Assembly: GCF_964204645.1 (NCBI RefSeq)
Contig: NC_134029.1
Span: forward strand, 13,728,850-13,792,849
Length of the DNA: 64,000 nt
Direction: 5' to 3'
Source of the DNA: Tubulanus polymorphus
Taxonomy: Eukaryota; Animalia; Nemertea
Shown here: positions 22,318 to 64,000 of the stretch, one piece after another
Position numbering within the stretch: the stretch's first letter is position 1
Layout of the letters: the number at the start of each line of letters is the position of its first letter
Translations under genes and position numbers: made by a program
Notes under the pieces: generated by a model
What the model saw: the letters and a program-made list of their open reading frames with translations, nothing else
What the model was told of the DNA's origin: nothing
Databases searched by the model: none

Positions 22318-22840
<523 letters not shown>

Positions 22841-31760: not shown

Positions 31761-31776
31761 TTTTTTCACCATATAA

Positions 31777-33465: not shown

Positions 33466-33468
33466 TTA

Positions 33469-34912: not shown

Positions 34913-34933
34913 ATTAATTTTTTTGTTAAATAA

Positions 34934-36180: not shown

Positions 36181-36229
36181 GTGTTATGAAATATTAAAAT
36201 TTTAACTTTAATAAAAAATCTTATATTAA

Positions 36230-37360: not shown

Positions 37361-37380
37361 TTATTATAAAACTATTTTTA

Positions 37381-37716
37381 TATCTATGTACTAGACGTAC
37401 GTAAGAATCTTGGTAAGAATCCAAGAATCCAAGAAATCTTACTTTCTTACTCGTACGTCTAGTACATAGATATATATATATAATAGTTTTCATAAAAATT
37501 AAAAACATAAAATTATTAATCTAAGTATAGAAATAGTTATAATATAATCTATTTTTATTTTTATTAAGAGAAAACATATAATTTATTCATTTTTATATAA
37601 TTCATTTAATAATTTATATATCTATGTACTAGACGTACGAGTAAGAATCCAAGAATTCTTACTTTCTTACTTTCTTAGCAAGAATCTTGGATTCTTATGT
37701 ACGTCTAGTATATAGA
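37381..37716. repeat. two related ~90-bp hairpins between convergent genes
   Basis: TATCTATGTACTAGACGTACG ... CGTACGTCTAGTACATAGATA arms at 37381-37471 and about 37619-37716. Confidence 0.85.
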
Positions 37717-37754
37717 AATATAAATTAGTTTCTATAATATTCCAAATTAGGATT

Positions 37755-38328
37755 TTATTTTATAAATTTATATTCATAGGGAAATTGAAGCCTCAGTAAT
37801 AATTTTGAACCTTTATTATTCTTTAATTTATTCATATATTCATCATGTAAATCAGTAGGTATAATTTGATTTTCTTCCAATGATTGTTGCATAGATTTTC
37901 TCCCTAAAGTCTTTAACAATTGAATTATATTTTTGATTTAAAACCCATGTTGTTATCCCAAAATGTCTTCCAGAGAAAGCTAGATAACATAACTCACTTT
38001 CTCTAACTTTTGAATCATGTAAATTTGCGCCATCATCTATAATGAATAATGTATTTGATCCTTTATAAATATCTAATGCTATTTTTAAACAATTATCTAA
38101 ATTTTCTTATACTGTTTTAGGATCTAATATAATAAACTTTTTTATCTTAACTATATCTCTATTATATGTTTTATTCATTTCATAAGTGGGGCAGAATAAT
38201 ATTATATTATCAAAATGATTCTTATAAATAGTTTCTAACAAGTTTAATATGAAATGTGTTTTACCACAGTATGTTACCCCAGTAACTAACATATTATGCG
38301 GTTCAAATATAAATAAATCTTTATTCAT
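37755..38328 (-). pseudogene. packaging ATPase
   Basis: GVTYCGKT, FIIDD and SGRHFG; stop at 38107. Confidence 0.88.
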
Positions 38329-39405
38329 TTATTCTTTTAATTTTACTAGATAAAATCCATTCATTTAAATTTATCATCGTACCCTTTATATTTCACCAAA
38401 GAATACTTTTTTCCTTTAAGAGTTTTTGTTTTTAATACTTTTTCTATTTTGTATTCTATTTCATCTGGGTTTGGTACAAGTGATAATTCTTGTTCATAGA
38501 AATAACCTAATATTTCTTCATCTTTTAGATCTAATTTATAAACAAATGGTTTAGTTAATATTATCTTTTTAATCTTAAATATTTCTTCAGTAAAATTAGG
38601 GGTATAACCTTTATAAAAGGTTTTTCTATATTTAGATATTCTAACGTGTTGTCCAATTTTAAAATTTGGGTTCTCCAAAATCATGTGTTACAAACGCGCC
38701 ATATAAATTATTCCAAACTATTTCTGAATTATTTTCTTTTCTAGCTTGTATAGGTTTCATATTTATAGAACTATGTTTAGAATTATTATAACCTCTCACT
38801 AAATCATCTAACACATCGATATATGTTTCATTAGCAGTAAAGTATTTCCACATTCTAGTTTTCAATGTTTTATTAAATCTTTCTATAATATATGCTTTTT
38901 TATCTGAATGTGTTGAAAAATACTCTACATCGTTAACAGATAATAGTTTTTAAAAATGTTTGTTATAGAATTCCTTACCTTCATCAAATTGTATCTTACC
39001 TGGAATAGCTTCTTTAAATATATTCTTAAAAGCATTTGTCACTTCTATTCCAGTTTCATTTTTGATTGGAATTGACCATGCGTATCTACTGAATATGTCT
39101 ATAACATTCAGTATCCAGAAATATCCTTTGTTGTATTCTTCGAAGTTCTTCATGTCAATTAAATCTGCTTGCCATTGTTGATCGATATATGAAACCATAA
39201 CTTTTCTTGTTAAATAAGTTTTATCCATTTTCTTGTGGATTTGATATGTTGGTTGATTTTATAACCATGATCTTAATTCACTATATTTTATATTACCATT
39301 TTCTTTATCAGATTTAATTTTACCCCATAATTCTGAAACGTTAGAATATGATACTTCACTTTCTGGGTTATAATATAACTCTCTTAAATATTGTTCTTCT
39401 TTCAT
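38329..39405 (-). pseudogene. rve integrase with chromodomain
   Basis: WQADLIDM, IDIFSRYAW, QFDEGKEF and YKIEKVLK...LVKYKG. Confidence 0.9.
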
Positions 39406-39409
39406 CTTA

Positions 39410-40377
39410 TTTTAATCCATTAATAATAATTTAGATTTAGTTTCAATGACTTTATGATTTGACTTATTTTCTGGTATAATAGGTTTATCATTGGAATCAT
39501 CTTTATCATCAGATTTGAATTTTGATTTATATATTACACCGGATAATATAATAATTGTGATTAACCCAATTGTAATATATAAGTAATTATTTCTTCCAGC
39601 ATTATAAGAATTAGATGGATTGTTATTTGAATCAATATCAGATATTTCTGTGATTCATTTATATCAGTTAATTTCTTTTTCTTAGCTTTTTTTAATTCTG
39701 CAGATCTTTTACCTATTCTCTTGCCCATTTAATTTGTTTTTCAGATCTAACCTTTTTCTTAACGCCATCACTCATTTATTTTAGTTAATTTTTGTTCTGA
39801 TTCATTTTCTGTTTCGCTGTTTGCTTGTAGTACATCTGTTTCGTTCTTACCTGATTTATATTCCATAGGTTTGATGTTCGTAAATGTTATGACTCCAGTA
39901 GAAATTAATGTCATAACCGATCCTAATTGAAATGATGCGTAACCAACCCATTTTTGTAATTAGAGTCATAACTAAGTAGTCATTTTTCAAATCATTATAT
40001 AATTTATTTTCATCATCAATTGGTATTTACTGGTTACATAACTTAGAGTAACATTTGATAATACCATCGGAAATAGAATCATTTATTCTAGCTAATCTAG
40101 CTTCTTCATAAATCTTAAAATATTTTATTACTTTATCTGGTTTCATAGAGTCTAGTTCTTGAAAAGTAATGGTCTTAGTTAAAAACTCCTTAGATTTCCC
40201 GCCAGCAATTAGTAATTCAAGATGGTGTTTACAATATAAGTAGTATTCATAATCAATATTGTTATTAACTTGAATATTATTTTCAATTTTGGTCGGAATA
40301 TCCTTATTATCACTAATGCCATAATCATCTAATGTTTTTTCAATATCAATACTATTCTTACTAGATTTCTTTGACAT
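39410..40377 (-). pseudogene. homologues of 63114 and 63652 (conserved protein and basic TM protein)
   Basis: ORF 40027-40377 plus decayed continuation; same pair at 14600-15573. Confidence 0.7.
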
Positions 40378-41465
40378 TTATATTAGAGAAAAAAGCGAAA
40401 AAAATATTATAAGTATTCTTCAAATGATATGAGTATCTCTTTGGGTTAATACTAGCTTAGTTCAGTTAAAGAATTTTAGTATTAGTTATTGTTTTTTTAG
40501 TATTTTTTATTTGTGATATAAAGTATTCCCTTTTTGAAAAGAAATAATAGATTTTTGAAAAATATAATAGAATTCACTAGCTAGTTAAAGTTATTGTTTT
40601 TTTAATATTTTTTATTTAATATTAGGATTTAATATCTCACTACTATTGTCTATCTATGGGAGCGGTAACTATAACTGTCCAGATAAGTCATTTCGGATCC
40701 TTGATATCAAATCTAGTTAATAATTAGAAATATTAGAATAGTTAGTTTAATTATTGTTTTACAACCGTTTCTAATTATTCATTATTCAAAATTCTTTGCT
40801 TTAATTTTTACAGTCGTTTCTAATTATTACGTTGAAAGATGGCAGCACTGAGTGAGATAGATACTGAAATGAAAATTTGAACTGGAATTTGAATTTAATA
40901 TTCAATTAACATGGATAATTGATTAAATTTGATTAATTTGATACAAGATTAGATCATAATTAAGTTAAAAATCCATAATTCATTTATCAGTTTTCATTCC
41001 TATATTCTTTTCGTTCGGAATAATTTATAATTTCAAATAACGTAAACACCGTTTATATTTACTTCGGTGTTTTAGCTAAGTATATAAGGCAATTCATTCC
41101 ACCGCTGGAGAAGCTCTGGCCAGCAGAGGCATTTTGAAAATGCACCTTCGTCCACTCTTCGGGTTTCTCCTTCGGTTTCGAATTTCGAGATTGGTAGAAA
41201 TTACATTAGGCGCCTTTAATATAATGTGATTTCTACCAATCATTGAAGGAGATCCCGGTTGACGTGGGTCGCCGGGGGTGTAAGTAGAAATGACTGGGGA
41301 AAAGCGTCCCGTGGCGCCTTTCAATAAAGGGATGCCTATCCCCTGAAAACTCTGTAGGTCGAGGATAGGGCAATTTTGCTAAAACTCACCTTGAAAAGTG
41401 AATTCCTTCTAATCACGAGAGAGAATGTATCCTGTGTGTATGTACTGAGTTATTATTATAAACGC

Positions 41466-42123
41466 TTAAGATGCAACGTATTTTTCATTATTTAGATCAC
41501 TATTCCATAATTCAACAAATGTCTTTGCTTTAACCAGTTGATCTAAATATAACTGTAAATCTAGTTTATTAGATTTAATTATGTTTTCCTTCTTTTCTAA
41601 AGGCCTTAAATTTCTCCAGCTCCATATTAGCTTCTTATTATAATCATCACTCATGTCAAATTTAGAAATCGGCAACACATGATCAATATGAAAGTATTCA
41701 CCATAATTATCTATATTCATTTTATCGTCGAATTGATATATTATCCATGATTTGAGAAATTCATTTGTACAACCCAACAAATTAGATAGTGTTTCTGAAT
41801 GTGTTTCTTCGTTGAATAATTGTGTTAATCTAGATCTTAAGCATTGTTTCACTTTAAAATTAAAATCTGTTTGATATCTTTCTCTCATATATTCTGTCAT
41901 ATAATCATTATAAGCTTCTCTATTATCTTCTTCGGTATTGTTTGGCATATAGTTTAATACGAGTTTTACAGCAATATTGAAAACCATCTTTGCTAATCTT
42001 ACGCTTATTAAATTCTGTTATAGCTAATTTATCTAATTCACATTTAGAACACTTCTTGTAGTATATGTTTATAACACCAGTGTTATTTGTAATATTGATA
42101 GTTTGTGGTTGTTCTGATTCCAT
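41466..42123 (-). pseudogene. HNH-family endonuclease with N-terminal zinc ribbon, frameshifted
   Basis: CSKC...EF.KR..SKDG...CK, then LRSRL, LLGC, NYGEYFHIDHVLP..FD and NLRPL...N..KSNK, a pattern recalled from large-DNA-virus and phage HNH nucleases. Confidence 0.75.
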
Positions 42124-42163
42124 TTATTATACATATTTTTTTTACCTAATTGATTTTAGAAGT

Positions 42164-42606
42164 TATTCATTTATATGTTATTCATGTGTGTATATATATG
42201 AATGAATATATATGAATTATTTCAATCACACTTTACTAACACTTTTAATGTTTAAAAATCTAACTCATACAAATATGAATATTGAAATATGTTTAAAATA
42301 TATCTATTTATCTATCTATTAGAGCTCGACCTCCGACCTCTGGCTTGAAACCCCACTTTTCTAATTACTTTTATATGTTGTTCATATATATTTTATCCAT
42401 GTAAATGAATATTTTAAGAGTAATAGGGGAATGTGGCTTTCATATCAAAGGTTGAAAGGGTGAGTGAGTAAAAAATGAAAATAACAATAATTTCTAGTTG
42501 AATTAGGAGTGTGCGCGACTAATTCAACTGGAAATTATTGTTATTTTCATTTTTTACGAGCTCGACCTTTCGACCTTTGGTATGAAAGCCACATTCCCCT
42601 ATTACT
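42164..42606 (-). repeat. right TIR with terminal palindrome 42419-42606
   Basis: Reverse complement of the left TIR. Confidence 0.93.
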
Positions 42607-48383: not shown

Positions 48384-49394
48384 CTACAGAAAACCAACTG
48401 TTTGATGGACCCAACAGATAGGTACAAATATCAAAAGAAATATATTAGTTATTACTGAGGGCCCCAATATGTCTGTTTAATACCATCTCATAAACTCAAC
48501 AGTTTGAAACGGGGGAAATCTTATGATATGAAATGAGAGACTACGTAGAAAAAACCAGTGCCTGTGGCTACTAGTCGACAATTTCTAAATTAATTTTCCT
48601 GTGCGATTTGGTTTCGTCCAATTGAGAGACTGCTTTTTTCAGTAGGGCATTTTTTGGATCACATCACTGGAAATTGGCTTGTGCTTTTGGGCCCCTTCGT
48701 TGGTTATCTACAAATGTTTCATATAAGCTATCGACCACAAAGCTGACACCGTGATGGTCAGAAACTGACCATAGAGATATGATCCCTCAGTCTGAACGAT
48801 TCAGACTTCGAATATCGGAAATTTCTCAAGCCATGTTTGTTTACAAATATTCATCATTGCAAATTTATAAGCTGACCAACACTGACCACTACTGACGAAT
48901 TACAATTTCACGAACATGAGAACGATATACCGCGTTTGGTGTGAAACTAGAAAAGATTCGCCATTGAAGATTCATGAATTGACCATTGACCACCAATGAC
49001 CAATTCAAAAAGAATAAGATCACAATACAATGATTTACCCCCACTTTCATCCAATCAGCACGATACCATTTAATTGAATCTAACGCATTGGGCTCCTGAT
49101 ATTTGAAATCATTTGTTACAATGAAGTTGATCCTAAGACTTGATCACCTGCGATACAGAAAACGTACAAGACGAAATTTTAAGATTGTAAAATCCGATTA
49201 GGTGATCGTCATTATGACGACAGCTCCATCACTGTAATTCTTAAGAGATTAGAACCACTTCTGGGTCGTCACTACAATTAAACTTTGACTCGAAATAATG
49301 ATTAATTAGTAATTAGAAAAGTGGGGTTTCAGGCCAGAGGGCGTGAGGGCGAGACACCCCACTCATCACCACAAGTAATTTTTTTCCCTAATAA

Positions 49395-52300
49395 ATGGGA
49401 GAGAGTGAGTTCCAACTAGAAAACAATAATGTCAATAAAAATCAATATTATTGTCAATATTGTAAAAAATACATCGATACATCTCATAAAACACGACATG
49501 AAAAAACTGCAAATCATATAAAAAATGTAATAGATTTTGAAACTCCAGAAAATTCCAATGAAAGAAAAGAAAGATTAGAAAATATGAATGTGGATGAAAT
49601 AAAATGTGAAGTTTGTAATGAATTTATAGTAAAAAGGAATTATAATAGACATCTCGAATCACAAAAACATTATAAAAATTTGAGTAATAATGTTTTAGGA
49701 TTAGAATATTTTGATAATAAACCTCAACAAGTAAAAGAATCAACTTCAAAAACAAAATCCATTTCAAATAAACCTTACATGGAAAATGTTAGAAATTATA
49801 TTGATTCACTAGAAATAAAAGATACAATTGAAATCTTAGAAACATTACATAGTAAAATTGGTCCTGCAGCTATTATATTTAGATTTTTTAAAGGTACAAC
49901 AATAGAAGATTATAATAAATTTAATGAAATAATAGAAAAAATACTAGATTTGATAACAGATGTTGAATATCCAAAAATTAGTATCTCTGGGAAAGTAAGT
50001 TTTATAAAGTCAGAAGAAAAAATGGATTATAATATTCAAACACACTCTGAAGAAATAATTTCAAAAACACAAATAAAAGAGAAGTTAGAAAAAATATTAA
50101 ATGAATTTAAACGTCATATTGAAGAAAGATATTTTGAGGGTTCTGGCTTAACATTGAATGAAATTATATATTTAGATTTAAATGTTTATAATACAAAAAG
50201 GAATAAAACATCAAAAAGTAATAAAATGTTTAAAAATGATTCAAACTTTACAACAGAAAAGGATATTAAAGCATCATCTTATATCAAATTACCATTTACA
50301 ACAAAAGCAGTAATAAATATTCAAAATGAAGATAATAAATGTTTTCTATGGTCAATTATTAGTTGCTTACATCCAACAGAAGAACATGTTTATAGAATAA
50401 CAGATTACCGGAAATATGAAACATTATATAAAATTGATCAATATCCAGTAACTATAAAAATGATTCCTAAAATAGAAAAAGTTAATAATTTAAAAATAAA
50501 TGTATTCAAATTAATGCAATTACCAAAGACAAAAGGTGAAAATATTAAAGATTATACATTGGAAGCTTTATATTTAACAGAATATTATGATGATGAAAAT
50601 GCTATAGATTTGTTATATTACAAAAAAGATGAAAATGAACATTATATGTGGTTAAAACAAATTGATTTATTCTTTAGAACAACAGAAAGTGATCATCATC
50701 GTAAAATTTATCTATGTAGAAAATGTTTATCTAAATTTATGACTGAGAATACATTACTAAAACATAAAGAATTATGTGATAATAAAGATTTTTGTAAATT
50801 AATAATGCCAACAGAAAAAGATTATAAATTGAAATTTACTAATCATAAATTTAAAAATATTGTTCCATTTGTAATTTATGGGGATTTTGAATCGTTGAAT
50901 AAAGAATTAACTGATCAAGATAGAAAAGAAATATATAACAAAAAGCAATTATTAAAATCAATGGATAAAGGAAATGATTTAAATGAAGACATAATACAAG
51001 ACCCACCAATTATAAATACAATTAAAAAAGTTCATCAAAGAGCTGCTGCTTATGGAATTTATATAAAATCAAATTATCCCGAATTATATGAAAGTCAATA
51101 TATTTCTTTTATAGGTGAAAATGTAGTTAATTATTTTTGTGATAAAATTATTGAATTAGAAAGTGATTTTGCAAAATTATTAAACAAAAATAAAAGAATA
51201 GTTATGACAAAAGAAGATGAAATTGATTTTAATTATGCAACTCATTGTTGTTATTGTGAAAAACGTTTTTATTCATTTGATAAAAGAGTTAGAGATCATG
51301 ATCATTTGAATTCAAAATATCGTGGAGCTGCTCATGAAGATTGCAATTTACAAGCTAAAAAAGTAAATTTCGTACCAATATTATTTCATAATTTATCAGG
51401 ATATGATACCCATCTATTTATAAAACAATTATCGGGAAAATTGGGCGCAATTAATCAAGAAATAGAAGAATATAATGCTATGAACGAAGCAAATGTAAGA
51501 AAATATGATTTTAAACTATTAGCTAAAACATCTGAAAATTATATTTCATTTCAATTTGGTTGCATTAGATTTTTAGATTCTTATAGATTTCTAGCAAGTT
51601 CATTAGATAATTTATCAAAAAGTTTAGTTGATAATGATTTTATTATAACTCGATATTATTATCCAAATGACCAAGATTTTAAATTATTGAGATATAAAGG
51701 TTGCAATTCCTTATTCATTTTATAAAACACATGATGATTTTAATGTAACAGAATTATTAAAAGATCAATTTTATGATAAATTAAAAGAGGAGTATGTGAA
51801 AGACGAAGTTTTTGATAGAACATTAAATATTTGGAACCATTTTAAGATGACATATTTGAAAAGTTTAGAGAAGTTAATCTAAACCATTTTAATGTTGATC
51901 CTTGTTATTGCTACTCTAGTCCTGGTTTAACCTGGCAATGTGGTTTAAAATATACAAATGTAGAATTAGATTTATTAAAAGAACCAGATATAGTTTTATT
52001 ATTTGAAAAATCAATTAGAGGTGGAATTAGTGGTGTTATGGGAGATAGGTATTTTAAAGCAAATGATGAATATAAATTATTATATATTGACGCCAATAAT
52101 TTATATGGTTGGGCAATGATGCAACCTCAACCATATAAAAATTTTATATTAACAGAAGTTGAAAATGATGATAAAACTGATTGGGAAAGCGCAATTGCGA
52201 GTTTAAAAGATGAAGCACCAATTGGTTATTTCTTTGTAGTTGATTTAGAATATCCTGAAAATATAAAGTTTAAAACAAGAAACTTACCTTATTGCCCAGA

Positions 52301-53339
52301 ACATTTAACTGTAGATGATAGTTATTTAAGTGAATACCAGAAGAAAATAAAACCGAAAGATCATGTTTTTACAGAAAAATTAATACTTACTCAAAATAAT
52401 AAATACAATTATATTGTTCATTATAGAATGTTAAAATTTTATCTAAAACAAGGAATGAAATTAAAGAAAGTACATAGATATATTGAATTTAATCAATCGA
52501 AGTGGTTAGAAAAATATATAGATTTCAATACTCAACAGAGAACAATATCAAAAAATGATTTTGAGAAGGATTTTTTTAAGTTAATGAACAATGCATTTTA
52601 TGGAAAAACATGCGAAAATATTAGAAATAGAAATGATATTGAATTAGTGAATAATTATGAAAGATTAAGGCATTTACAATCAAGTCCTAGACATCTAGGA
52701 AATAAAAGATTTGAGGATTATTTGACCGCGGTAAAATTAAAAAGAACGTCAATGAAATTTAATAAACCAATATTTATTGGTTCGACTGTTTTAGAAATTT
52801 CAAAGCTATTGATGTATGAATTCTATTACAATGTATTACAACCTCATTTTGGAGAAAAACATATAGAAATCTTATATTTTGATACTGATGCGTACATATT
52901 AAAGATAAAAACTGATAACATAACAAAAGACTTAAAAACATTGAAACATTATTTTGATTTTAGTAATTACCCTAAAGATCATGAATTGTTTAGTAATGAT
53001 AATAAAAAGATTCCTGGTAAGTTTAAAGATGAATTAGGAGGTGATGAAATGATTGAATTTGTTGGGATAAGAAGTAAAATGTATAGTTATAGAACAAAAG
53101 ATCATGAAGCTAAAAAGTTAAAAGGAATAACAAAACATGTGGTTGATAAACATATAGAATTTCAAGATTATATAAAGTGTTTATATAAATCAATTGTAAT
53201 GAAACACAAAATGAATTGTTTAAGATCAGAAGATCATGAGATGTACATTAATGAAGTTGAAAAAACTAGTTTAAATCCATTTGATGATAAAAGGCATATT
53301 TTAGATGATGGTATAAAAACATTACCTTATGGCCATTAA
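49395..53339 (+). pseudogene. polB: pPolB (type A), intein-free; 1-nt insertion near 51701 and ~58-bp deletion near 51848
   Basis: ORFs of 776 aa and 433 aa; all Exo and Pol motifs present; motif C reads YFDTDA. Confidence 0.95.
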
Positions 53340-54625
53340 AACATAAAATCAATATCATCAAACTCGAAATCATTATTAGCTTCTTCATTTTCAGGTTCTT
53401 CTTCCATTCCATTTTTCTCATTTAAATAAAGTTCTATCTTGTTCCACATTTCATCTCGCTCTCTTTGTTTCTTTTTGTTTGTTAATTCATCAAATGGAAT
53501 TATAATATCTAGGTTTAAATAATTTACAATCTTATTTAAAAAAAATTCATAATTTATTGAATCTGTTATTCTATTTTCCAAATGATACATTAATATTTGT
53601 TTAAATATTTTTTTTATATTTTCCATATCTTCTTCTGTTAATTTAGGTTTTTCATAATAATCGTTTGATAATAAATATAAATACATTTTCTTTTGTTTTG
53701 TGTTACATGTTGGTGGAATAATTGTTTTTATAATATCTTTTTTAGTTATTTCGCCATTTTTATTTTCTATTATTTTCATTTTTTCAAGCCATTGCATATA
53801 TTCTGGTGTATGATCTTCTATAGAAAATATTTTAAAAATTTCATCAAGATAATTTAATTTTGGATCTATAAGAAAATTTCTAGTTTTTTCTTCATCCCAT
53901 AAATTCTTTTGCCATCCACAATCAACACAAAATAACACAGTACCTTCTTGTCTTAAGGTCGCATAAATACATTGTGGGCATTTTTGTTTATAATTTATTG
54001 GTAATAGATCTTCATTAAGCTCTTGGTATTTTCTTACGTTTTCTTTATGTTTTATTGTTCTATTATGTAGATTTGAATTACTTGTTGTAATAATCAATTT
54101 ACAATATTTACAATAATATGTTTTTCTTGTTAATTCATTATATTGTTTTTCTAACTTTTCAACTGTTTCTTCATTATCTGGTAACGTTTTCTCATATTTT
54201 ATTTTTTCTAATAAATTATTTTTTCTTTCATTGAATTCAGTTTCAAATTTATTAGAAATTTTATCTATATGTGCTTTACTAAATTGATGATTCTCCCAAT
54301 CTTCTATATTGTCAGGGCTATATTTTACTTGACAAGGCTCACAGAAATTATTCTTTACATTATTCTTGTTATAAAATAAGAAAGGTCTTTTCCAAATAAC
54401 TTCAGGTTCAACTTCAGCAGAATTACTATCAACATTAGCCATTGCGCCATTAATTCTACACTTCTCTGAATGTTTTTTAACATAATTTCTTGAGAATAAT
54501 TGATTACATTTTGGGCAGTTTATTTTAGGGGGTTTATAATTTTCATCATGTTTTTTCATATGTCGAGCCTTATTACTTTTTCTTAGAAGTTCACCACAAA
54601 TTTCACATGCTATCTTCTCGTCCAT
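53336..54625 (-). CDS. multi zinc-finger protein with C-terminal poxvirus VLTF3 (A2)-like domain
   Basis: N-terminal C2H2 fingers; CPQC-x13-CVDC ribbon; IFKQILMYHLEN...SINYEFFLNKI...DEMWNKI resembles recalled vaccinia A2 IFKHLVFFCQEN...TINYSFFLDKI. Confidence 0.7.
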   Translation of the reverse strand: MDEKIACEICGELLRKSNKARHMKKHDENYKPPKINCPKCNQLFSRNYVKKHSEKCRINGAMANVDSNSAEVEPEVIWKRPFLFYNKNNVKNNFCEPCQVKYSPDNIEDWENHQFSKAHIDKISNKFETEFNERKNNLLEKIKYEKTLPDNEETVEKLEKQYNELTRKTYYCKYCKLIITTSNSNLHNRTIKHKENVRKYQELNEDLLPINYKQKCPQCIYATLRQEGTVLFCVDCGWQKNLWDEEKTRNFLIDPKLNYLDEIFKIFSIEDHTPEYMQWLEKMKIIENKNGEITKKDIIKTIIPPTCNTKQKKMYLYLLSNDYYEKPKLTEEDMENIKKIFKQILMYHLENRITDSINYEFFLNKIVNYLNLDIIIPFDELTNKKKQRERDEMWNKIELYLNEKNGMEEEPENEEANNDFEFDDIDFMF

Positions 54626-54682
54626 TTATTAGGGGAAAAAATTACTTGTGGTGATGAGTGTAATTTTTTTATGTTATAAATA
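54626..54682. promoter_or_regulatory. divergent promoter containing an inverted copy of the terminal promoter motif
   Basis: 54623-54660 is the near-exact reverse complement of 49360-49397. Confidence 0.7.
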
Positions 54683-55479
54683 ATGGTAGAATTAAAAGAA
54701 TACAGAATATTTGTTGATTCTAGAAAACTTATAAATTATAAATCTCATAATTTATTAGTACAATTAGATAGAGAATTTAAGAATTGTGTAGATTTAAAAT
54801 TAGTAAATATAAGTTTATGTAATTCTTTTTATAATATATCGGATAAAACTGATGAACATAGAAGCCTTCTTATTTTTGATAAACTTGAAAAAAAATGGAT
54901 TCAACTTATGCTTACACCAGGATTATATGATTTAGAAACATTAGAGCAAGAAATTAATAGAAAAGCTCGGATTAGATTAGGTAATGGTAATTCTAAATTT
55001 AATATTAAATTCATAAAAAGTGAGAGCTCTAATAAATTAAAATAAAGCTTGATGATGAACTTATTAAACTTGATAAATCTAATCCATTGATGACAAGAAG
55101 ACATACTTACACAGCAAAAAAACCTATAGCTAAACTATTAGGAATTACTCCAAATCAATTTGGTGGAAACAAACACGGTAACTCAAATATAATACCTTTT
55201 ACACACTTTTATATTTATTGCAATTTAATCGATCCTACAAAAACATTCGAAGCAACTAAAGATACAACATGTAATTCTAGTATATTAAACATTTTACCAT
55301 TGAAGAATGTTAAACAATTTGGAACGCAAATAAATTATAATTTAGCTGAATGTGATTTTAAACCTTGCATTCCTCATTTTAATAATTTTAGATTAGAAAT
55401 TAGAAATCATAATGGATACTTAATTGATTTAAATAACTTTCCTGTGATATATGAATTAGTTATAAGATGTAGAGAGTAA
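54683..55479 (+). pseudogene. putative minor capsid (penton-like) protein, one frameshift near 55035
   Basis: About 265 codons, beta-rich pattern, penton-like C-terminus. Confidence 0.65.
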
Positions 55480-55495
55480 TTTTTTCATTATATAA

Positions 55496-55852
55496 ATGAA
55501 TATAACTGTTGGACCGAGTATATGTTTTGGATTTGATTTTAAACATGGTAAAGAAATGAAATTTAACATTAATGATGTAATAACACATATCAAAAATGTT
55601 GTATTTTCTAATGAAACAACATTTGAGTATGAAACAACAATAGATAAAGAAACTTTAAATGTAGAAAAGATTACTAATTTAATTAGAGAATCTTTAAGAT
55701 TTTATGAATTAGATGAAGATTTTATAATCGATGATATTAAGAAAATAATAATTGAAATATATACAAATGAAACTAGTAATAAAATAAATGTTGAATTAAT
55801 CATCACTAAGTTAAATAAATATTTTGATGATAGTAATTTTTTTGATAAATAA
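55496..55852 (+). CDS. conserved hypothetical protein (118 aa)
   Basis: Intact, TAAATG start, homologue at 31777. Confidence 0.8.
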   Translation: MNITVGPSICFGFDFKHGKEMKFNINDVITHIKNVVFSNETTFEYETTIDKETLNVEKITNLIRESLRFYELDEDFIIDDIKKIIIEIYTNETSNKINVELIITKLNKYFDDSNFFDK

Positions 55853-56074
55853 ATGAGTGATAATAAGTGGATAATAACTGGATTATATAATGGCGCATTA
55901 CTATCAGTTGGAACTGTTGGTTATTCAATGGTATTAAAAAAAGTATTCAAAATGGGAAGTGTTAATGTTGATAGATTTGATATAAATGATATTTTGAAAT
56001 TAACATTAGCAGTTACTTTATCTAATTTAACTATTGATTATTTGGAAAAACAAAAATATATTCCTCCCATATAA
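55853..56074 (+). CDS. small hydrophobic protein (73 aa)
   Basis: Two hydrophobic segments; homologue at 32121. Confidence 0.75.
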   Translation: MSDNKWIITGLYNGALLSVGTVGYSMVLKKVFKMGSVNVDRFDINDILKLTLAVTLSNLTIDYLEKQKYIPPI

Positions 56075-56098
56075 ATGCATAATTTTTTTGCTAAATAA

Positions 56099-56521
56099 AT
56101 GGCTTCTGCAATTATAACTATTATAGGATCAGCAATAGTTAACGCTTTAGCATTTACTGGTGGTGGATATTTATTTAAACATATTGATAAAAATAGTTCA
56201 TTAGGAGAACAAAGAAGACATAATTTAGCGTTAGAGAAATACAATAAAGCAGCAGAAGAATATAGAGAAAAAAGACAAAACTATATGGATTACATCAATA
56301 AAGAATTATATGATCAGAAGATTTCACACAGAGATTTTCAATCAGTTGATGATGCAATGAGTTTATATAACGCAGTAACCAATAAAGAAAAATTACATCT
56401 ATACAAACCTAAATTATCAGATTATTATACCCCAAGTAAAGAACAACAGAAATATGAAATAATTTGGATTTTAGGTGGAACAGTTATTGTTATATTTGTT
56501 GCTTATAAGTTTACTAATTAG
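56099..56521 (+). CDS. membrane protein (140 aa) with N- and C-terminal hydrophobic helices
   Basis: Four copies in the window. Confidence 0.85.
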   Translation: MASAIITIIGSAIVNALAFTGGGYLFKHIDKNSSLGEQRRHNLALEKYNKAAEEYREKRQNYMDYINKELYDQKISHRDFQSVDDAMSLYNAVTNKEKLHLYKPKLSDYYTPSKEQQKYEIIWILGGTVIVIFVAYKFTN

Positions 56522-56540
56522 TAATTTTTATTCTAAATAA

Positions 56541-56975
56541 ATGGAAGATAAAGTTGATAGTATTGATATTATTCCTCATGATATAAATAAAACTAAATTA
56601 AAAACATATTTAGAAAAACAAATATTAGAATTCGAAAGTGACTTAAAGATAAAAAAGAAAAAATATTTAAAAAGTAAAATTATATATTATTTGATTATCA
56701 GTGGTTCGGTTACAATTAGTTCTGTAATAACATTTCTAGCAATATTCAGTCCATTAACACCTTTAGCTATATCAATTGGTGTATTAGGATTAAGTTCAAG
56801 TGTTTTAACTGGTATAAGTTCAAAATTAAATATAAAAAGTAATAAAGAAAAAATCAAAACTAATATAAAAGAAATAAATAAATTAAAGAACACACTAGAT
56901 TATATAATAAGTTTAAATGGTCATATAACGGTTGAAGAACAAGATAAATTATTAAAAGAATTAATAAATTATTAA
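56541..56975 (+). CDS. two-TM protein (144 aa)
   Basis: Central hydrophobic hairpin flanked by coiled coil; four copies. Confidence 0.85.
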   Translation: MEDKVDSIDIIPHDINKTKLKTYLEKQILEFESDLKIKKKKYLKSKIIYYLIISGSVTISSVITFLAIFSPLTPLAISIGVLGLSSSVLTGISSKLNIKSNKEKIKTNIKEINKLKNTLDYIISLNGHITVEEQDKLLKELINY

Positions 56976-56991
56976 TTTTTTAGTTATATAA

Positions 56992-58320
56992 ATGGGGTTT
57001 CCAAAAGCTTTCCAATATAATAAATCAATTAAATATAATATTCCGGCAATAGATTTTAAGAAAAATATTACATATAAAAATATAGTTTTAAATTCATTAA
57101 CTAATTTAGAAATTTATGTTAATGAATCACAGTTTTTTATTTCTAAAATGGAAAATATATTTAATACATATGAAGTTACTTTTACTCGAGATGAATATCA
57201 TAAATATAAAGTAAAATCTAATATGAAGTATTGGCAGAACCAATTAAATTTTGCTGTTTATTGTGCAACAACAGGATGTGGAATAAGTTGGAATGATCAT
57301 TTAAATAACTTAGATAAAAATTTGAAGTATTCTGATTTAAAATTAATTCACACAATATTTAGATTTCACACATATTTTCAAATCAGAATAATATTAAATG
57401 AATTAGAATGTCCTTTACCCGGGTCTAAATATTTTAAAGAATTGGATAATAATATTAATATATCCAAGTTTTATAAAATATGTAATGAATTTAATATAAA
57501 TATTAATTCCGATTTCAGAGCGCATGGTAAATTGCAAGGTGTTGGTGAAGAGTTTGAAATAAAAAGAATTGATTATATTCATAGAATTTCAGCTTATCAT
57601 AATTATAAAATTGATAATAATAATGGTTGGGTTAATTTCATTTTAGAAAATGGTGAAGGTTTTACAAAATCAGGTATACAAAGAATAAATCAATCTATTA
57701 GAATTTATTTGATATGTATTTTAGGCGCTCAAGTTGAAACAAGATCCCCAATAATTGGAAATGATAACACTTCATTTGATGCGCAGAAACAGTTTAAAGT
57801 TTTATTTGAAGATTCAATTCATAATGATAAAAATAGATCGATTCCAGAAAACATTATAAGATATCAAAATTATTTAGATAAATCTCATGTAAGACTTAAT
57901 TATTGTATAGGCCCTAATCTATTAATTATTTCTAATGATTTAGTATTAAAGATGGGAAACATAATTGGTTATAATAATCTAATTAAAACTGCAACAATAA
58001 ATAATTCATTTGGGTTAAATGATATAAATAAAAAGATTATTACTGCTCCAAAATTAATGGAAGGTGAAAAAAATAAAAAACACATTCAATCAACTGAAAC
58101 TAAAACTAAGAATATTAAATTAAATAATGATTCTAAAATAAAAGATTATAATACATCAGAAAATATTAGAACTGATAATGGTGTCATATGGCACCCACAC
58201 GGTGATATTCAACATGATGTAATTAAACTAAATGATGATAATAAATTCCATGAAAATACTAAATTAGCTATAACTTGTATAGGAATTGTTATAGGAGGAA
58301 TATTATATTTCAAATTTTAA
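56992..58320 (+). CDS. conserved 442-aa protein with C-terminal TM anchor
   Basis: Intact ORF; WQNQLNFAVYCATTGCG conserved in other copies. Confidence 0.85.
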   Translation: MGFPKAFQYNKSIKYNIPAIDFKKNITYKNIVLNSLTNLEIYVNESQFFISKMENIFNTYEVTFTRDEYHKYKVKSNMKYWQNQLNFAVYCATTGCGISWNDHLNNLDKNLKYSDLKLIHTIFRFHTYFQIRIILNELECPLPGSKYFKELDNNINISKFYKICNEFNININSDFRAHGKLQGVGEEFEIKRIDYIHRISAYHNYKIDNNNGWVNFILENGEGFTKSGIQRINQSIRIYLICILGAQVETRSPIIGNDNTSFDAQKQFKVLFEDSIHNDKNRSIPENIIRYQNYLDKSHVRLNYCIGPNLLIISNDLVLKMGNIIGYNNLIKTATINNSFGLNDINKKIITAPKLMEGEKNKKHIQSTETKTKNIKLNNDSKIKDYNTSENIRTDNGVIWHPHGDIQHDVIKLNDDNKFHENTKLAITCIGIVIGGILYFKF

Positions 58321-58336
58321 TTTTTTTATTATATAA

Positions 58337-59791
58337 ATGGATGTAGAAGGTGGAGAAGATATTGGAATGGATCCTTTTGATGAACCTAACATAACTGATG
58401 AACAACCACCTGATTTTGTTGAAACAAGTTTTAATGATGGTAATGAACCAGTATAAAACAATAATTTAAATATGCCTGATTATATTAAAAATGCTGAATC
58501 ACAATTAAATCCTGAAAATTTAGACCCAGATTTAGTAAAACAAGATTTAGATAATTTAAACAAAATACCTAAATTAGAAGATTTAATTGAAAAATCTAAT
58601 TTTAACATAAATGATGAAGACGTTGGACTTTTAGCAGATCAATTAAAATTTTTAGATAATGGTAAATGTTATTATCGTTTGAAAGGTGATTATTATATTG
58701 ATATCACTTATAAAAATAATAAAAATAAAATATTATCAGAATCAACTTTAGAAAAATTAAAACCAGATAGAATTAAAATAATAAGTAATAGTAATGAAAT
58801 AACTGATGTTACACAAAAAGAAATAGATGATAATATAGATGTATTTAAACAAAGAATTAATGAATTATTTGAAATAATCAAAAAGAAATCAGAAACAGAA
58901 ACAACTTCTGAACAGAATATAACTTCCAAAAATAGTAAACATAGATCAAATAAAGTTCCAATTGAAAAACTTTTACCGAATGGATTACTTGATGCAACAG
59001 ATCAAGAATTAGAAGATTTAGATATATTTTCTGATAAAGCAATTAGAGAAATTATTAGTATAAGACTTGCATCTGATAAAATTGCACATAATAAAAGTAT
59101 AAGAGATTTTAAAATTAGAACTTTAGAAAAAGAATTAACTGATAAAAATAAAGAAATAGAACAACTAAAGTCTGATTTAGATCATCAAGTAATTGATGAA
59201 ATAGAATATAGGCAAAAAGAATTACGTTTAGAAAAAGAAAAAGATGATTTAGAATATAACATAGAATTTCAGAAAGAAGAAATTAAATTATTATTAAAAT
59301 CATATGATTATAATATTAATAGATTAAAAGTTATTTTTAAAGATTTGTTGATTAAACCAAATTCTGAAATATAATTAAAAGATAGAATAAGATTATTATT
59401 TAAATTAGAAGGAATAACAATTCTTTCAATTCTAACAGCTGTAACTATGTTATTTACAACAATTGGTTTAGCAATATCAAATGCTTTGAAATCTACTCCT
59501 ACTCCCAATAAACCAGATAAACCTCCGGAAAATAATTCTATACAAGATAAAGTTAAAGATGGTTTAAAGAAATTAGCAAAATATTTATGGGAACTATCTA
59601 AAAAATCTGCTGCAGCACTACCAGGAGTTATTGCTTCAATTGTTGGTTTTGTTTTAAAATCTGCAGGAAACATTATTAACTTTGCTGCTGAATATATTAT
59701 TTTATTTTTAATCACAGTTGTAAGTGCTATTATTTTTGGGTTAGTGAATATGATATCAAAAAAATATCAAGTAAACCATGATAAAAAATAA
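58337..59791 (+). pseudogene. coiled-coil protein with C-terminal TM helices (~484 codons, in-frame TAA at 58454 and 59372)
   Basis: The ATG at 58337 and ORFs 58472-59374 and 59447-59791 are all in one frame. Confidence 0.8.
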
Positions 59792-59815
59792 ATGATTAAT
59801 TTTTTTGTTTAATAA

Positions 59816-61063
59816 ATGAGTGGGAGTTATATAAGTCCTTCTAAGATTTCTAGAATATCTAATGCTATTAAAGCAGAAAGATCACATCATATAATTACTC
59901 ATAACCCTTCAAATATTAATCCCGATGAAACTTTATATGTTAGAATTCCGAGATTAACACAAAATACTTTTTATGTTCCAAACAGTATTTATTTATCAGC
60001 TGATATAAAAGTATCTGGTAATAATAATAATTATGTCGTTGATAATGTTGGAAGATATTTGATTAAAAAGTTAACAATAAAGATTGGTCCGGAAACAGTT
60101 TTCTCATTAGATGATTATAATTTATTTATGCATTATAAAGATTTATGGTTAACAAAAGAAAATAGAAATAATATGATATTTCAGGGTATTCAATCAGAAA
60201 ACCAAAATAAATTAAGATCAGAAGCTAATAGCGCAATATTAACTAATGATGTAGATAAATTGATAAAAAGTATATATGGAAGCAAATATAAAATTCCATT
60301 AGACTTTGAATTGATAAATAATAATGCACCTTTATATAAATACGCAATTCAAGAAGATATTATATTTGAGATAACATTTGCTCCTGTAAATGAAATTGTA
60401 ATATCTAGCGTTAATAAAGATATGAATTATAAATTATCGAATATATGTTTAGAATATGATACAGTAACTGATGAAAATATTGCTAGAACAATTCAAACTC
60501 AATACAATCAAGGATTTTCATTATTATATGATTATATTGATAAATTTAAAACTGTAACTATTAATGCAAATGATGAAATAATAAATGAGAATATTAACTT
60601 CCCAAGAAGATCTATTAAAGGTATATTAATATTTTTTACTATTGGAACGTATACTAATGGTGCAATAAATGTTGACAATTATTATAATCCTGAAATAACA
60701 AAAGTAGAAATAACTATCGAAGGAATAGCAAATAAAATATTTTGTCAAGGAATGAGAATGATTGATCAATGGGTAGAAATTAAAAAACATTTTATGAATG
60801 AAAAAGTAAAATCATTTGAAAATTGTAACATTAATCAAATTGATTATTATACCGGTAATAAATTTGCATTATGGGTAGATTTTAGAACAACAGAAGATAA
60901 TTCATTACATGGTTCTGGAAAAAAACTACAGAACACTAAAGATGGAATACAATTATTCATGAAAAAGAATAAAGGAATCAAAAATTTTAAAATGCACATT
61001 TATATTATATCTGATGCGCAATTAAATATTGTAAATTCACAATTAGATAGTATTCAATATTAG
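59816..61063 (+). CDS. putative double jelly-roll major capsid protein
   Basis: 415 aa, beta-strand-rich, highly conserved between copies, next to integrase and ATPase. The fold is inferred. Confidence 0.7.
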   Translation: MSGSYISPSKISRISNAIKAERSHHIITHNPSNINPDETLYVRIPRLTQNTFYVPNSIYLSADIKVSGNNNNYVVDNVGRYLIKKLTIKIGPETVFSLDDYNLFMHYKDLWLTKENRNNMIFQGIQSENQNKLRSEANSAILTNDVDKLIKSIYGSKYKIPLDFELINNNAPLYKYAIQEDIIFEITFAPVNEIVISSVNKDMNYKLSNICLEYDTVTDENIARTIQTQYNQGFSLLYDYIDKFKTVTINANDEIINENINFPRRSIKGILIFFTIGTYTNGAINVDNYYNPEITKVEITIEGIANKIFCQGMRMIDQWVEIKKHFMNEKVKSFENCNINQIDYYTGNKFALWVDFRTTEDNSLHGSGKKLQNTKDGIQLFMKKNKGIKNFKMHIYIISDAQLNIVNSQLDSIQY

Positions 61064-61093
61064 AAATATAAAGTTAAAATTAAGCGTATATAA

Positions 61094-62221
61094 ATGGGTG
61101 GTAAAAAATCTCCTAATACTAAAGAACAATATTTAAGAAATTTATATTACAACCCTGAGAGTTCGGTTGCTTATTCTTCTACCAAACATATATGGCGTCA
61201 AGTAAAACAAGATAAATTAGATAAGATAATCCCACAAAATTTAGTTAAATATAAAGATATAAATGAATTTATGTTAGAACAACCAACATATACAACACAT
61301 AAAAAAATTGTTAGAAAATATAAAACTCGTAAAACTATGGTAAGTTATGTAGATCAACAGTGGCAAGGAGATTTAATTGATATGAAAAATGTTAAGAAAG
61401 ATAATGATGATTATTGGTGGTTATTGAATATAATTGATATTTTTAGTCGTTATGTATGGAGCTTCCCACTTTATAGAAAAGATGCTGTACAAACATCAAA
61501 TGTTTTAAGAAAATTTCTTTCAGGTGGTAAACTAAAACGAGAAAAAATTCAATTTGATGATGGAAAAGAATTTGATAATTCATTAGTTCATGGACTTTTA
61601 GATTTTCATAATATTAAATATTTTTCAACAAAATCGGATAAAAAAGCAGCAGTTGTTGAACGATTTAATAGAACATTAAGAACAAGAATGTGGAAATATT
61701 TTACAGCAAATAATACTTTTAAATGGATTGATGTTTTACCAAAATTGATAGAAGGATATAATAATTCTTATCATTCTTCTATTGGAATGAAACCTATTGA
61801 TGCTAGAAAACCTGAAAATGCTGAAATTGTTTGGAATAATTTATATGGAGCATTTCTTGTAGATGATTTTGGTGAACCTAAATTTAAAGTTGGTCAAAAT
61901 GTTAGAATTTCTAAGTATAAAAAGATATTTGACAAAGGATACGATCGAAATTTTACTAGAGAAATATATAAAATAAAAAAGGTAATAACAACAAAACCAT
62001 ATGTCTATAAATTAGAAGATTTAGATGGTGAAGAAGTTGATGGTTACTTTTACGAAGAAGAATTAAGTTTAACTACTGAAAATCTAGAACAAGAATATAA
62101 AATTGAAAAAGTACTAAAAACAAAAACTGTTAAAAGAAAAAAATATTCTTTAGTAAAATGGGTTGGATGGCCAGATAAATTCAATGAATGGATATTATCA
62201 AGTAAAATTAAAAATATATAA
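61094..62221 (+). CDS. retroviral-like (rve) integrase with C-terminal chromodomain
   Basis: DDE residues in WQGDL, QFDDGKEF and VVERFNRTL; YKIEKVLK...LVKWVGWPDKFNEWI. Confidence 0.96.
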   Translation: MGGKKSPNTKEQYLRNLYYNPESSVAYSSTKHIWRQVKQDKLDKIIPQNLVKYKDINEFMLEQPTYTTHKKIVRKYKTRKTMVSYVDQQWQGDLIDMKNVKKDNDDYWWLLNIIDIFSRYVWSFPLYRKDAVQTSNVLRKFLSGGKLKREKIQFDDGKEFDNSLVHGLLDFHNIKYFSTKSDKKAAVVERFNRTLRTRMWKYFTANNTFKWIDVLPKLIEGYNNSYHSSIGMKPIDARKPENAEIVWNNLYGAFLVDDFGEPKFKVGQNVRISKYKKIFDKGYDRNFTREIYKIKKVITTKPYVYKLEDLDGEEVDGYFYEEELSLTTENLEQEYKIEKVLKTKTVKRKKYSLVKWVGWPDKFNEWILSSKIKNI

Positions 62222-62830
62222 ATGAATAAGGAATTATTTATATTTGAGCCTCATAATATGTTAATTTCTGGCGTAACAAATTGTGGAAAAACTTATTTTA
62301 TATTAAATTTATTAGAAACTGTTTATGAAAACTATTTTGATAATATAGTATTATTTTGCCCAACCTATGAATTTAATCAAACTTATGATAGAAATATTAC
62401 TAGGAATAATAAATTTATTATATTAGATCCTAAAACAGTAAAAGAAAATTTAGATAATTGTATAAAAATAGCAATTGATATTTATAAAGGATCAAATACA
62501 TTATTTATCATAGATGATTGTGCTAATCTACATGATTCAAAAGTTAGAGAAAGTGAGTTATGTTATTTAGCTTTCTCTGGTAGACATTTTGGGATAACAA
62601 CTTGGGTTTTAAATCAAAAATATAATTCAATTGTTAAAGACTTTAGAGAAAACATTAGATTTCTAGTTTTATTCTACAATAAAGATAGAAAATCGATGAA
62701 AAATGCACTTGAGGAAAATGATATTATTCCACATGATTTACATAATGAATATATGGATAAGTTGAAAAATATTAAAAGATCAAAATTACTATTTAGATTA
62801 CAACACCCATTTAAATATGAATTTATTTAA
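62222..62830 (+). CDS. A32/FtsK-HerA family DNA packaging ATPase
   Basis: GVTNCGKT, LFIIDD and SGRHFG...NQ. Confidence 0.93.
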   Translation: MNKELFIFEPHNMLISGVTNCGKTYFILNLLETVYENYFDNIVLFCPTYEFNQTYDRNITRNNKFIILDPKTVKENLDNCIKIAIDIYKGSNTLFIIDDCANLHDSKVRESELCYLAFSGRHFGITTWVLNQKYNSIVKDFRENIRFLVLFYNKDRKSMKNALEENDIIPHDLHNEYMDKLKNIKRSKLLFRLQHPFKYEFI

Positions 62831-63096
62831 ATTCAACTAGCTTGTTAATCTAATTGAATTCTAGTTACATTCTAGTTGAATTCTAGTTGTTAGTAGTTGA
62901 AACAAAAATCAACTAGATTTAACAATATTTCAACTAGCTTGTTAATCTAGTTGAATTCTAGTTGTTAGTAGTTGAAACAAAAATCAACTAGAATGTAACT
63001 AGAAATAAACAAAAACAACAATATTTCAACTAGCTTGTTAATCTAGTTGAATTCTAGTTACATTCTAGTTGAATTCTAGTTGCAACAACACAACTA
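62831..63096. repeat. array of short palindromes (TTCAACTAG / CTAGTTGAATTC)
   Basis: Three units TTCAACTAGCTTGTTAATCTAGTTGAA near 62832, 62929 and 63025, plus subrepeats. Confidence 0.9.
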
Positions 63097-63113
63097 ATTT
63101 GTTTGTTATATAA

Positions 63114-63719
63114 ATGGGAGGTGAAAAGAAAATAAAATCTAAAAATGGTGATGTTCCAATTGAAAAAATTTTAGATGATTTAGGAATAACAGAAACAAAA
63201 TTAACTCCAGATGATGGTGCTTTAAATAATGTTACAACAAATAATAATTATGAATATTATCTTTATTGTAAACATCAATTAGAAATATTAATAGCATCTG
63301 GAAAATGTAAAAATTTTGTCGGTAAAAATTTAACTTATAATGAATTAGATACAATGAAATCAGATGAAATTATTAGATTATTTAAGATTTATGAATCCGC
63401 GAGAACAGCTAGAATTAATGACGCGATATCAGAAAATGTAGTAAAAGGTTATAGTAAATTATGTAATTATATACTACCAATTGAAGATGAAAATAGATTA
63501 TATTCTGATTTAAAAAATGATTATTTAGTTATGACTGAATTAAATAAATGGATTGGATATTTATCATTTCAATTAGGTGGATTTATGACATTATTATCAA
63601 CTGGAGTTATAACATTTTCAAATATTGAAAGTAAAAATATTTCTATAATAAATGAGCGAGGTGAAAGAAGTGAAGGAATTACCTGTGAAGAAAAAACCGA
63701 GAACTCAGAAACAAATTGA
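63114..63719 (+). CDS. conserved hypothetical protein (201 aa) with hydrophobic C-terminal segment
   Basis: Homologues at 14965 and 40027. Confidence 0.8.
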   Translation: MGGEKKIKSKNGDVPIEKILDDLGITETKLTPDDGALNNVTTNNNYEYYLYCKHQLEILIASGKCKNFVGKNLTYNELDTMKSDEIIRLFKIYESARTARINDAISENVVKGYSKLCNYILPIEDENRLYSDLKNDYLVMTELNKWIGYLSFQLGGFMTLLSTGVITFSNIESKNISIINERGERSEGITCEEKTENSETN

Positions 63720-64000
63720 ATGGTCTCGACAATTAGGAATTAAATCACAAGAATATAAAAAAGCTGGAAAAGAAAAAATAAGTAATAAAAATGTTAATAA
63801 AAATGGTGAAAATATTGTTATTTCTACTCCTTCTGATAGTAGAATATTTGATAAATATCTATATTTTACAGTTGGATTTGTAATTGTATTCATTTTGATT
63901 GGGTGTAATTGGTATAAGAAATCAAATAAAATTCATGATATTAGTAATTCTGAACCAACTGCTATCAAAAATGAAAGTACTTCTGAAATTCCAAAATTTA
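63652..64000 (+). CDS. basic single-TM protein, runs off the window (not in the ORF track)
   Basis: TAAATG start; MSEVKEV...KKKPRTQKQIEWSRQLG...YLYFTVGFVIVFILIG; homologues near 39775 (-) and 14972 (-). Confidence 0.7.
   Translation, partial: MSEVKEVKELPVKKKPRTQKQIEWSRQLGIKSQEYKKAGKEKISNKNVNKNGENIVISTPSDSRIFDKYLYFTVGFVIVFILIGCNWYKKSNKIHDISNSEPTAIKNESTSEIPKF

Follow-up and report, generated by a model that had tools for sequence, protein, structure and literature searches.

Several small double-stranded DNA elements that integrate into host genomes or co-infect cells carry promoters that copy those of a large virus, as described for mavirus with CroV, Sputnik with mimivirus, Gezel-14T with PgV, and the endogenous mavirus-like elements (EMALEs) (10.1101/2022.07.28.501842, PMC8547959). 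Mavirus and Sputnik use the late promoter of their helper (10.1101/2022.07.28.501842), and different EMALE types bear different promoter motifs (PMC8547959). Closer to the poxviruses, the entomopoxvirus-associated polinton-like viruses (PLVs) AHEV_PLV1/2, CBEV_PLV1, and Ca_PLV1 are of the Polinton class and have been proposed to be poxvirus hyperparasites (PMC11296320). The question taken up here is by what means the genes of animal Mavericks are expressed, and whether these elements live as autonomous viruses or as satellites. This paper describes a cluster of Maverick/Polinton copies in a 64,000-nucleotide stretch of the nemertean Tubulanus polymorphus (contig NC_134029.1, positions 13,728,850 to 13,792,849 of the forward strand; hereafter the window), in which 13 of the 14 genes of one copy, designated copy 6, start at ATAAATG, typically preceded by a T-run, as in poxvirus late promoters.

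The late promoters of vaccinia and mpox virus place TAAAT+G on the start codon behind a T-rich stretch centred ~10 nucleotides upstream, and a conserved T lies 10 nucleotides upstream in vaccinia (PMC11980589), which therefore corresponds to position -13 on the ATG scale. The Maverick element shares this arrangement, and it resembles an entomopoxvirus example in having head-to-head genes ~30 bp apart; it differs from vaccinia and mpox virus in that the motif stands on 13/14 genes, including those for replication, in a fixed TAA at -19 to -17 and an A at -4, and in having no RNA polymerase match, its promoter activity being predicted from sequence. Whereas the described virophage systems have protist hosts and helpers from the Imitervirales, this element combines a probable Maverick-type capsid and a likely animal host with a pox-type motif. 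The entomopoxvirus-associated PLVs, compared by description only, differ in their size of ~12 kb, their occurrence in occlusion bodies, the presence of a protease, and in that no rve integrase was detected in those bearing PolB; the terms promoter, motif, TAAAT, and VLTF were not found when the text and one supplement of their description (PMC11296320) were searched for them. A subset of animal polintons, described as coral polintoviruses and MELD viruses, is similar in carrying a VLTF3-like gene, ascribed to exchange with giant viruses (PMC11131425, PMC8502044), but the word promoter is absent from both texts, and the passages covered mention neither a pox-type affinity nor a matching promoter. 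The yeast pGKL linear plasmids likewise are protein-primed linear elements with a TAAAN initiator and 5' poly(A) leaders (PMC6211774), but they differ in supplying an RNA polymerase and a capping enzyme from their own genes and in lacking a capsid and an integrase. Promoter sharing in protist virophages and pox-associated PLVs are already known; the pattern in these Mavericks would be a further form of virophage-type promoter mimicry, and no report of a T-run + TAAATG promoter in Mavericks was found in the literature searched, which covered sources other than subscription papers and bioRxiv supplements.

The window holds an accumulation of related Maverick/Polinton copies, mapped by tblastn, that lie on either strand, and has a GC content of ~23%. 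The presence of a protein-primed family B polymerase, an rve integrase, an A32-type ATPase, and the terminal repeats of a related copy identifies these copies, at the level of sequence, as integrated Maverick/Polinton elements. Copy 6 extends from ~49308 to the end of the window, and its right end lies beyond it. The original prediction held that nearly every gene of this copy starts at a T-run followed by TAAATG, and each of the 13 starts that it listed as TAAATG was verified: 49395, 54625 (minus strand), 55496, 55853, 56099, 56541, 56992, 58337, 59816, 61094, 62222, 63114, and 63652. All 13 carry a preceding A, giving ATAAATG, and the fourteenth start, at 54683, reads TAAATAATG. The ATG open reading frames (ORFs) at 52038, 55090, 58472, and 59447 were excluded from this count as inner pieces of split genes, because relatives encode the matching genes as single longer ORFs. 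Among the 564 other ATGs on both strands between 49380 and 64000, TAAATG occurs 30 times (Fisher p 4e-15) and ATAAATG 12 times (Fisher p 6e-19), and the combination of AATTTTT with TAAATG is found at 9/14 starts of copy 6 vs 2/564 background ATGs. The upstream region is phased, with T at -19 in 13/14 starts, A at -18 and at -17 in 13/14 each, and a T-run from -16 to -11 in which T occupies 11, 11, 14, 12, 11, and 11 of the 14 starts, position by position. Across the 64-kb window the pattern AATTTTT-N4-10-ATAAATG occurs 18 times, each time at a gene start, vs a mean of 0.52 and a maximum of 3 for the same pattern in 100 dinucleotide shuffles, and the other copies of the window carry TAAATG at 23/27 inspected starts. 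The T-run + TAAATG at the gene starts of copy 6 is real and clade-specific. A second TAAATG lies on the stop of the upstream gene, 24 nucleotides 5' of the true start, at 56075 and 59792, where it opens ORFs of 6-7 codons.

The T-run has the same phase as in vaccinia late promoters. The T fraction at -14 to -12 is 0.89 in copy 6 (T in 14/14 starts at -14 and 12/14 at -13) and 0.81 in 47 TAAATG starts of relatives, vs 0.33 in 178 TAAATG starts of prasinovirus-like contigs, in which T-run + TAAATG is found at just 3/655 starts. An entomopoxvirus head-to-head pair is 31 bp apart; among the relatives of the Maverick the head-to-head pairs with TAAATG on both sides have gaps of 19, 24, 24, 28, 28, 30, and 72 bp, two pairs of near-duplicate contigs being among them.

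Relatives were collected by a capsid alignment search, which yielded 45 metagenome loci and 2 genome loci, and their starts were called by one rule (ORFs of at least 100 amino acids, read from the first ATG that follows a stop and not filtered by homology). AT content as an explanation of the motif failed this comparison, since TAAATG is used at 30/33 starts in relatives of 22% GC, 15/19 at 31%, and 7/9 at 41%, and at 49/58 starts of capsid-related metagenome contigs. A sister group (L015, L016, L018, L025, and L026; L017 was left out as a duplicate) has TAAATG at 0/24 starts and instead bears TATAG within 20 nucleotides of 10/24 starts vs 13/734 in the background, a motif that was chosen from the same data. 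TAAATG is likewise found at 0/4 starts of L024, and at 2/58 starts of distant eroded loci, where start calls are unreliable. In a capsid tree made by quick search only, built from 22 rows for loci and the window together with 37 proteins out of the 120 listed, L001-L014 group with the window (SH-aLRT 90), and L022-L023, which use TAAATG at 5/6 starts (of the form TATAATAAATG), stand beside the TATAG loci (SH-aLRT 93). This placement implies that the motif changed at least twice, and the TAAATG of L022-L023 is possibly an independent gain or a retention. The TATAG Mavericks are candidate dependants of another helper. The sister Mavericks L016/L017 also carry a Bcl-2 family gene. Scans of IMG/VR with the capsid, with the L016 VLTF3, and with the ATPase returned no relatives. 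A 54%-identical capsid protein (P0046) is named from a Bartonella assembly, in which it is probably foreign DNA.

A link to poxviruses that is independent of the promoter, and modest, is provided by the gene at 53336..54625 (minus strand, TAAATG start), which encodes a zinc-finger protein with a C-terminal poxvirus-type VLTF3-like domain (PF04947). Residues 205-412 score 26.7 bits at a cut-off of 25 when the domain alone is searched, in agreement with the Atlas, and the whole ORF gives no match; a word search with the VLTF3 region also gave none. A phmmer search of 1.84 billion representatives returned four matches, of which three are unnamed proteins without PF04947 and one is a canonical VLTF3 (E 7.6e-4, 27% identity) that is itself 60-63% identical to named entomopoxvirus VLTF-3 proteins. 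An entomopoxvirus profile scores the domain at 27.8 bits, and a prasinovirus profile misses it. Alignment-based fold modelling (pLDDT 82; 22 rows, including 6 entomopoxvirus and 9 prasinovirus-like rows) gave a predicted C4 zinc ribbon plus a helical domain that is weakly TFIIB/cyclin-like (Z 4.5-4.9). When this model was compared with BFVD by Foldseek, cowpox VLTF3 ranked first (E 9.7e-7) and two entomopoxvirus VLTF3 proteins fourth and fifth, above the mimivirus, pandoravirus, iridovirus, and African swine fever virus (ASFV) forms; a single-sequence fold (pLDDT 40) returned nothing under E 0.001. In a VLTF3 tree the non-pox rows lie on a long separate branch, a single clade of all polinton VLTF3 was not rejected (p-AU 0.29), and the VLTF3 of the TATAG clade bears the RKNFLSY signature of the non-pox rows. 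Within the window VLTF3 was found in only two copies. A search of the full-length copy at 22318..42606 gave no VLTF3 match, and that copy has retained its TAAATG starts. The original prediction had pointed to a pox-like virus by combining the VLTF3-like gene with an intein and an HNH nuclease; VLTF3 lends this some support, poxvirus VLTF3 being nearest to it in the sequence and fold searches though not in a resolved tree, and the intein and HNH were rejected as pox-specific evidence: both lie in copies other than copy 6, and neither is a particular pointer to poxviruses.

Signals on the coding strands are weak evidence. AATAAA is not avoided: copy 6 has 68 where 61 are expected, its relatives (12 loci after removal of three near-duplicates) have 142 vs 149, and entomopoxviruses 227 vs 239. 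Avoidance is seen in the TATAG group, at 10 vs 19 expected. In relatives TTTTT-V-T falls below expectation (10 vs 28.9), as do T5-V-V (38 vs 53) and the mirror sequence (21 vs 31). Avoidance of splice donors was dropped as a candidate signal, since it seemed to discriminate in one prasinovirus subset (112 vs 163) and failed to do so in another (135 vs 156).

Taken together, the genes of this Maverick would be read, in the manner of virophages, by the late transcription machinery of a co-infecting pox-like virus, a reading we hold to be somewhat probable from the sequence evidence. Such a helper-read element fits the single promoter class on all genes, the tiny head-to-head gaps, and the persistence of the motif without VLTF3; no separate early class was seen, the polB, integrase, and VLTF3 genes all standing under the same motif. 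On infection by the helper, DNA of the element would reach the cytoplasmic factory, where late factors of the helper would recognise the ~20-bp promoter, and initiation within AAA with slippage would place a non-templated 5' poly(A) leader directly ahead of the AUG. Start contexts of animals favour a purine at -3, according to the Kozak rule, and the T found at -3 in the DNA is proposed to be tolerated because the poly(A) leader precedes the AUG. All genes of the element, polymerase included, would be switched on together, its VLTF3 may be an accessory from the helper lineage that competes with or supplements the A2-type factor of the helper, and the integrase would bring copies back into the host genome. 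For the endogenous poxvirus hyperparasite that had been predicted, likeness to late promoters is supported by the phase of the T-run, conservation at 41% GC, the swap between clades, the gaps of 19-30 bp, and VLTF3, and dependence on a helper is what we infer from these, no helper having been found.

Several observations weigh against this reading. The scan of IMG/VR for pox-type VLTF3 returned no helper, its hits being just two entomopoxvirus-like records; of the 110 loci found by motif scanning not one uses the motif near-universally (63/588 starts), and no RNA polymerase was found in the 2 of 5 candidate helper records reached by search. Two entomopoxvirus-like stretches use TAAATG at just 10/20 and 6/20 starts, and the T peak is weak in 15 entomopoxvirus TAAATG starts (0.58 vs 0.53 upstream), so that the match in phase is to vaccinia only. 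TAAATG alone also occurs at 126/655 starts (19%) of the prasinovirus-like contigs L158-L237, ten times the background, where it may be an undescribed late initiator. Identity of the VLTF3 to pox VLTF3 is only 14-27%; the VLTF3 tree, with long branches and no chordopoxvirus, asfarvirus, or iridovirus rows, gives no resolution among the element and pox rows; and in the Foldseek ranking an unnamed protein and a Moumouvirus protein occupy ranks 2 and 3, the model having been built from an alignment that held 6 entomopoxvirus rows. The T5NT signal is an early, not a late, poxvirus signal (a terminator), and its depletion is not specific, prasinovirus-like ORFs having 22 vs 33 and T5-V-V being equally depleted in copy 6; the AATAAA comparison rests on no validated nuclear control. 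Finally, the weakly TFIIB/cyclin-like fold predicted for VLTF3 could serve host RNA polymerase II (Pol II).

This last point leads to autonomous late transcription in the nucleus, in which the VLTF3 of the element, with its zinc ribbon and one cyclin-like repeat, would act as a TFIIB-like factor that steers host Pol II to TAAAT and the pox likeness would stem from an old capture of gene plus promoter instead of dependence today. We regard this as unlikely, although it is the most probable of the alternatives: the weak resemblance of the VLTF3 model to TFIIB/cyclin folds agrees with it, VLTF3 type and promoter type co-vary between two clades, and the chromodomain of the integrase implies a nuclear phase. 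Prasinoviruses are not known to encode an RNA polymerase, and the prasinovirus-like contigs with VLTF3 are enriched for TAAATG, but the T-run is nearly absent from their starts. Small mriyaviruses keep VLTF3 as well (PMC11253617). On the other side, the full-length copy of the window is without VLTF3, help in trans being possible. With VLTF3, polB, and integrase under one motif there would moreover be no early class to start a cascade, gaps of 19-30 bp are too small for two Pol II core promoters, and internal AATAAA, at ~5 per kb, is not avoided. Rather improbable, in our judgement, is a helper from another group of cytoplasmic large DNA viruses that initiates at TAAAT, such as a basal lineage of the Pokkesviricetes or a virus of the Megaviricetes. 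Initiation of this type with 5' poly(A) slippage reaches beyond poxviruses, since yeast linear plasmids use TAAAN (PMC6211774), and egoviruses, which are relatives of poxviruses, donated genes to parabasalid polintons (10.1101/2024.03.23.586382), but the asfarvirus-like late motif TATATA (PMC11788076) is nearer to the TATAG of the sister clade. An 8-kb stretch (L103) of an unclassified 299-kb viral record uses TAAATG at 4/13 starts and has T-rich upstream stretches. In another copy an intein sits in the DTDS motif of the polymerase, a site resembling those of inteins in large DNA viruses, which suggests a space shared with such viruses generally; the VLTF3 searches, however, place poxvirus proteins above the ASFV, iridovirus, mimivirus, and pandoravirus forms.

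That the motif is a host-type signal and not a viral promoter is very improbable; candidates would be a context for translation, the AATAAA poly(A) site of the preceding gene, a TATA box, the coupling of stop and start codons, or a bias towards AT. The element is 77% AT, every start of copy 6 holds either AATAAA (7/14) or TATAAA (7/14), and some protists have very short AT-rich 5' regions; but neither hexamer is common to all starts, whereas ATAAA-TG is present in 13/14, and AAAATG is found at 0/14. Stop-start coupling, the other ordinary explanation that the original prediction had named, covers just 2/13 starts in copy 6 and 1/34 in relatives, and the motif is also present at genes that lack any upstream gene on their own strand. 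It also persists at 41% GC and is replaced wholesale in the sister group. AT content, stop-start coupling, AATAAA, and a TATA box were each rejected as the cause of the motif.

The remaining features of copy 6 are those of a decayed Maverick, in which polB, the 54683/55090 gene, and the 58337 gene are each split. Its probable left terminus (49308..49353, plus strand, as are the features that follow unless stated otherwise) begins AGTAAT; it matches the terminus of another copy, which ends at 7042, and also part of the sequence within the terminal repeats of the copy at 22.3-42.6 kb. The predicted polB promoter (49360..49398, T-run + ATAAATG) repeats the VLTF3 promoter at 54622-54660 in inverted orientation, over 39 nucleotides at 97% identity. 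This inverted pair frames the polB-VLTF3 module and has an additional CACTCATCACCAC stretch upstream; it may delimit a module that can be exchanged, or represent a second class of promoter. The protein-primed family B polymerase (49395..53339) consists of two ORFs (49395-51725 and 52038-53339) and shares 92-94% identity with its counterpart in the copy at 2.0-7.0 kb, which matches DNA_pol_B_2 in Pfam at 64.9 bits. A 57-bp gap between head-to-head genes (54626..54682) contains two putative promoters and separates VLTF3 from the split gene at 54683..55479, the start of which, TAAATAATG here, is TAAATG in the copy at 31003; this gene is possibly a minor capsid gene, a suggestion made without a Pfam match. 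Six conserved genes of no known family follow (55478..59791; starts 55496, 55853, 56099, 56541, 56992, and 58337, the last being split), each with a T-run + ATAAATG and with gaps of 0-24 bp, and the 56992 protein had no match in the Atlas. The predicted promoter and the open gene of the 415-residue probable major capsid protein, a candidate for the double jelly-roll type, follow at 59798..61063; the protein matches Capsid_N at E 0.01, below the cut-off, it has 178 homologues, homologues of it are located beside ATPase and integrase genes, and no sequence match was found in the PDB. The integrase (61094..62221) carries an rve domain (PF00665, 33.5 bits, above the cut-off) and a chromodomain (PF00385), and has a TAAATG start with an incomplete T-run. 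It is followed by the A32-type packaging ATPase (62222..62830; PF04665, 50.1 bits), whose TAAATG is coupled to the integrase stop, and by two more conserved genes with TAAATG starts at 63114 and 63652 (63114..64000), the second of which runs past the window end. No Pfam match to an adenovirus-type cysteine protease, which Mavericks usually but not universally encode, was found among the ORFs of copy 6, which is cut by the window end, and none to an RNA polymerase in its 17 ORFs or in the other scanned ORFs of the window, several of which are without assignment.

The surrounding cluster is interrupted by a BEL/Pao fragment (7.0-8.1 kb), satellites, and reverse-transcriptase fragments (RVT_1; 19830-22300 and 42600-43300), which occur with a GIY-YIG-like stretch and are probably Penelope-like. 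Repeats of these kinds point to an animal as the likely host. Its full-length related Maverick copy (22318..42606) is bounded by terminal inverted repeats of ~0.5 kb, ends in AGT, and has a target duplication of 6 bp (CCTGAC); within its terminal repeat lie an inverted segment and another stretch that resembles a terminus, and its polB is interrupted by ~4.7 kb with 31-bp and 155-bp satellites. The ORF at 41987, presumably of HNH type and without a Pfam match, belongs to this copy. The intein lies at 2500-3550 (minus strand) in the polymerase DTDS motif of another copy, has two LAGLIDADG-like motifs and an Intein_splicing match of E 0.006, and is interrupted by stops; it is absent from copy 6. 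The examined copies are split or interrupted, and the suggestion that the cluster is an antiviral reservoir found no support. Contigs from three runs of one organism cover the element, many of them variants.

Because the 20-bp promoter matches the poxvirus signal that has been studied best, the lifestyle of animal Mavericks becomes testable. Were Pol II to read these genes in the nucleus, a pox-derived factor and promoter would have been reused with the host enzyme, an arrangement not described in the parts of the literature covered. A wider proposition, which we put forward tentatively and with some doubt, is that a widespread lineage of canonical Mavericks in animals consists of endogenous poxvirus virophages. 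Each clade would wear its helper's late promoter, here TAAATG with a pox-type VLTF3 and in the sister clade TATAG with a non-pox VLTF3, and would change helpers by exchanging promoter and factor at one time, so that undiscovered pox-like viruses would be expected in its hosts. If transcription by a pox-like helper is true, the class of helper on which a given Maverick clade depends could be read from its promoter motif as from a barcode, the virophage lifestyle would reach from protists to integrated elements of animals, and unknown pox-like viruses would be predicted in the hosts.

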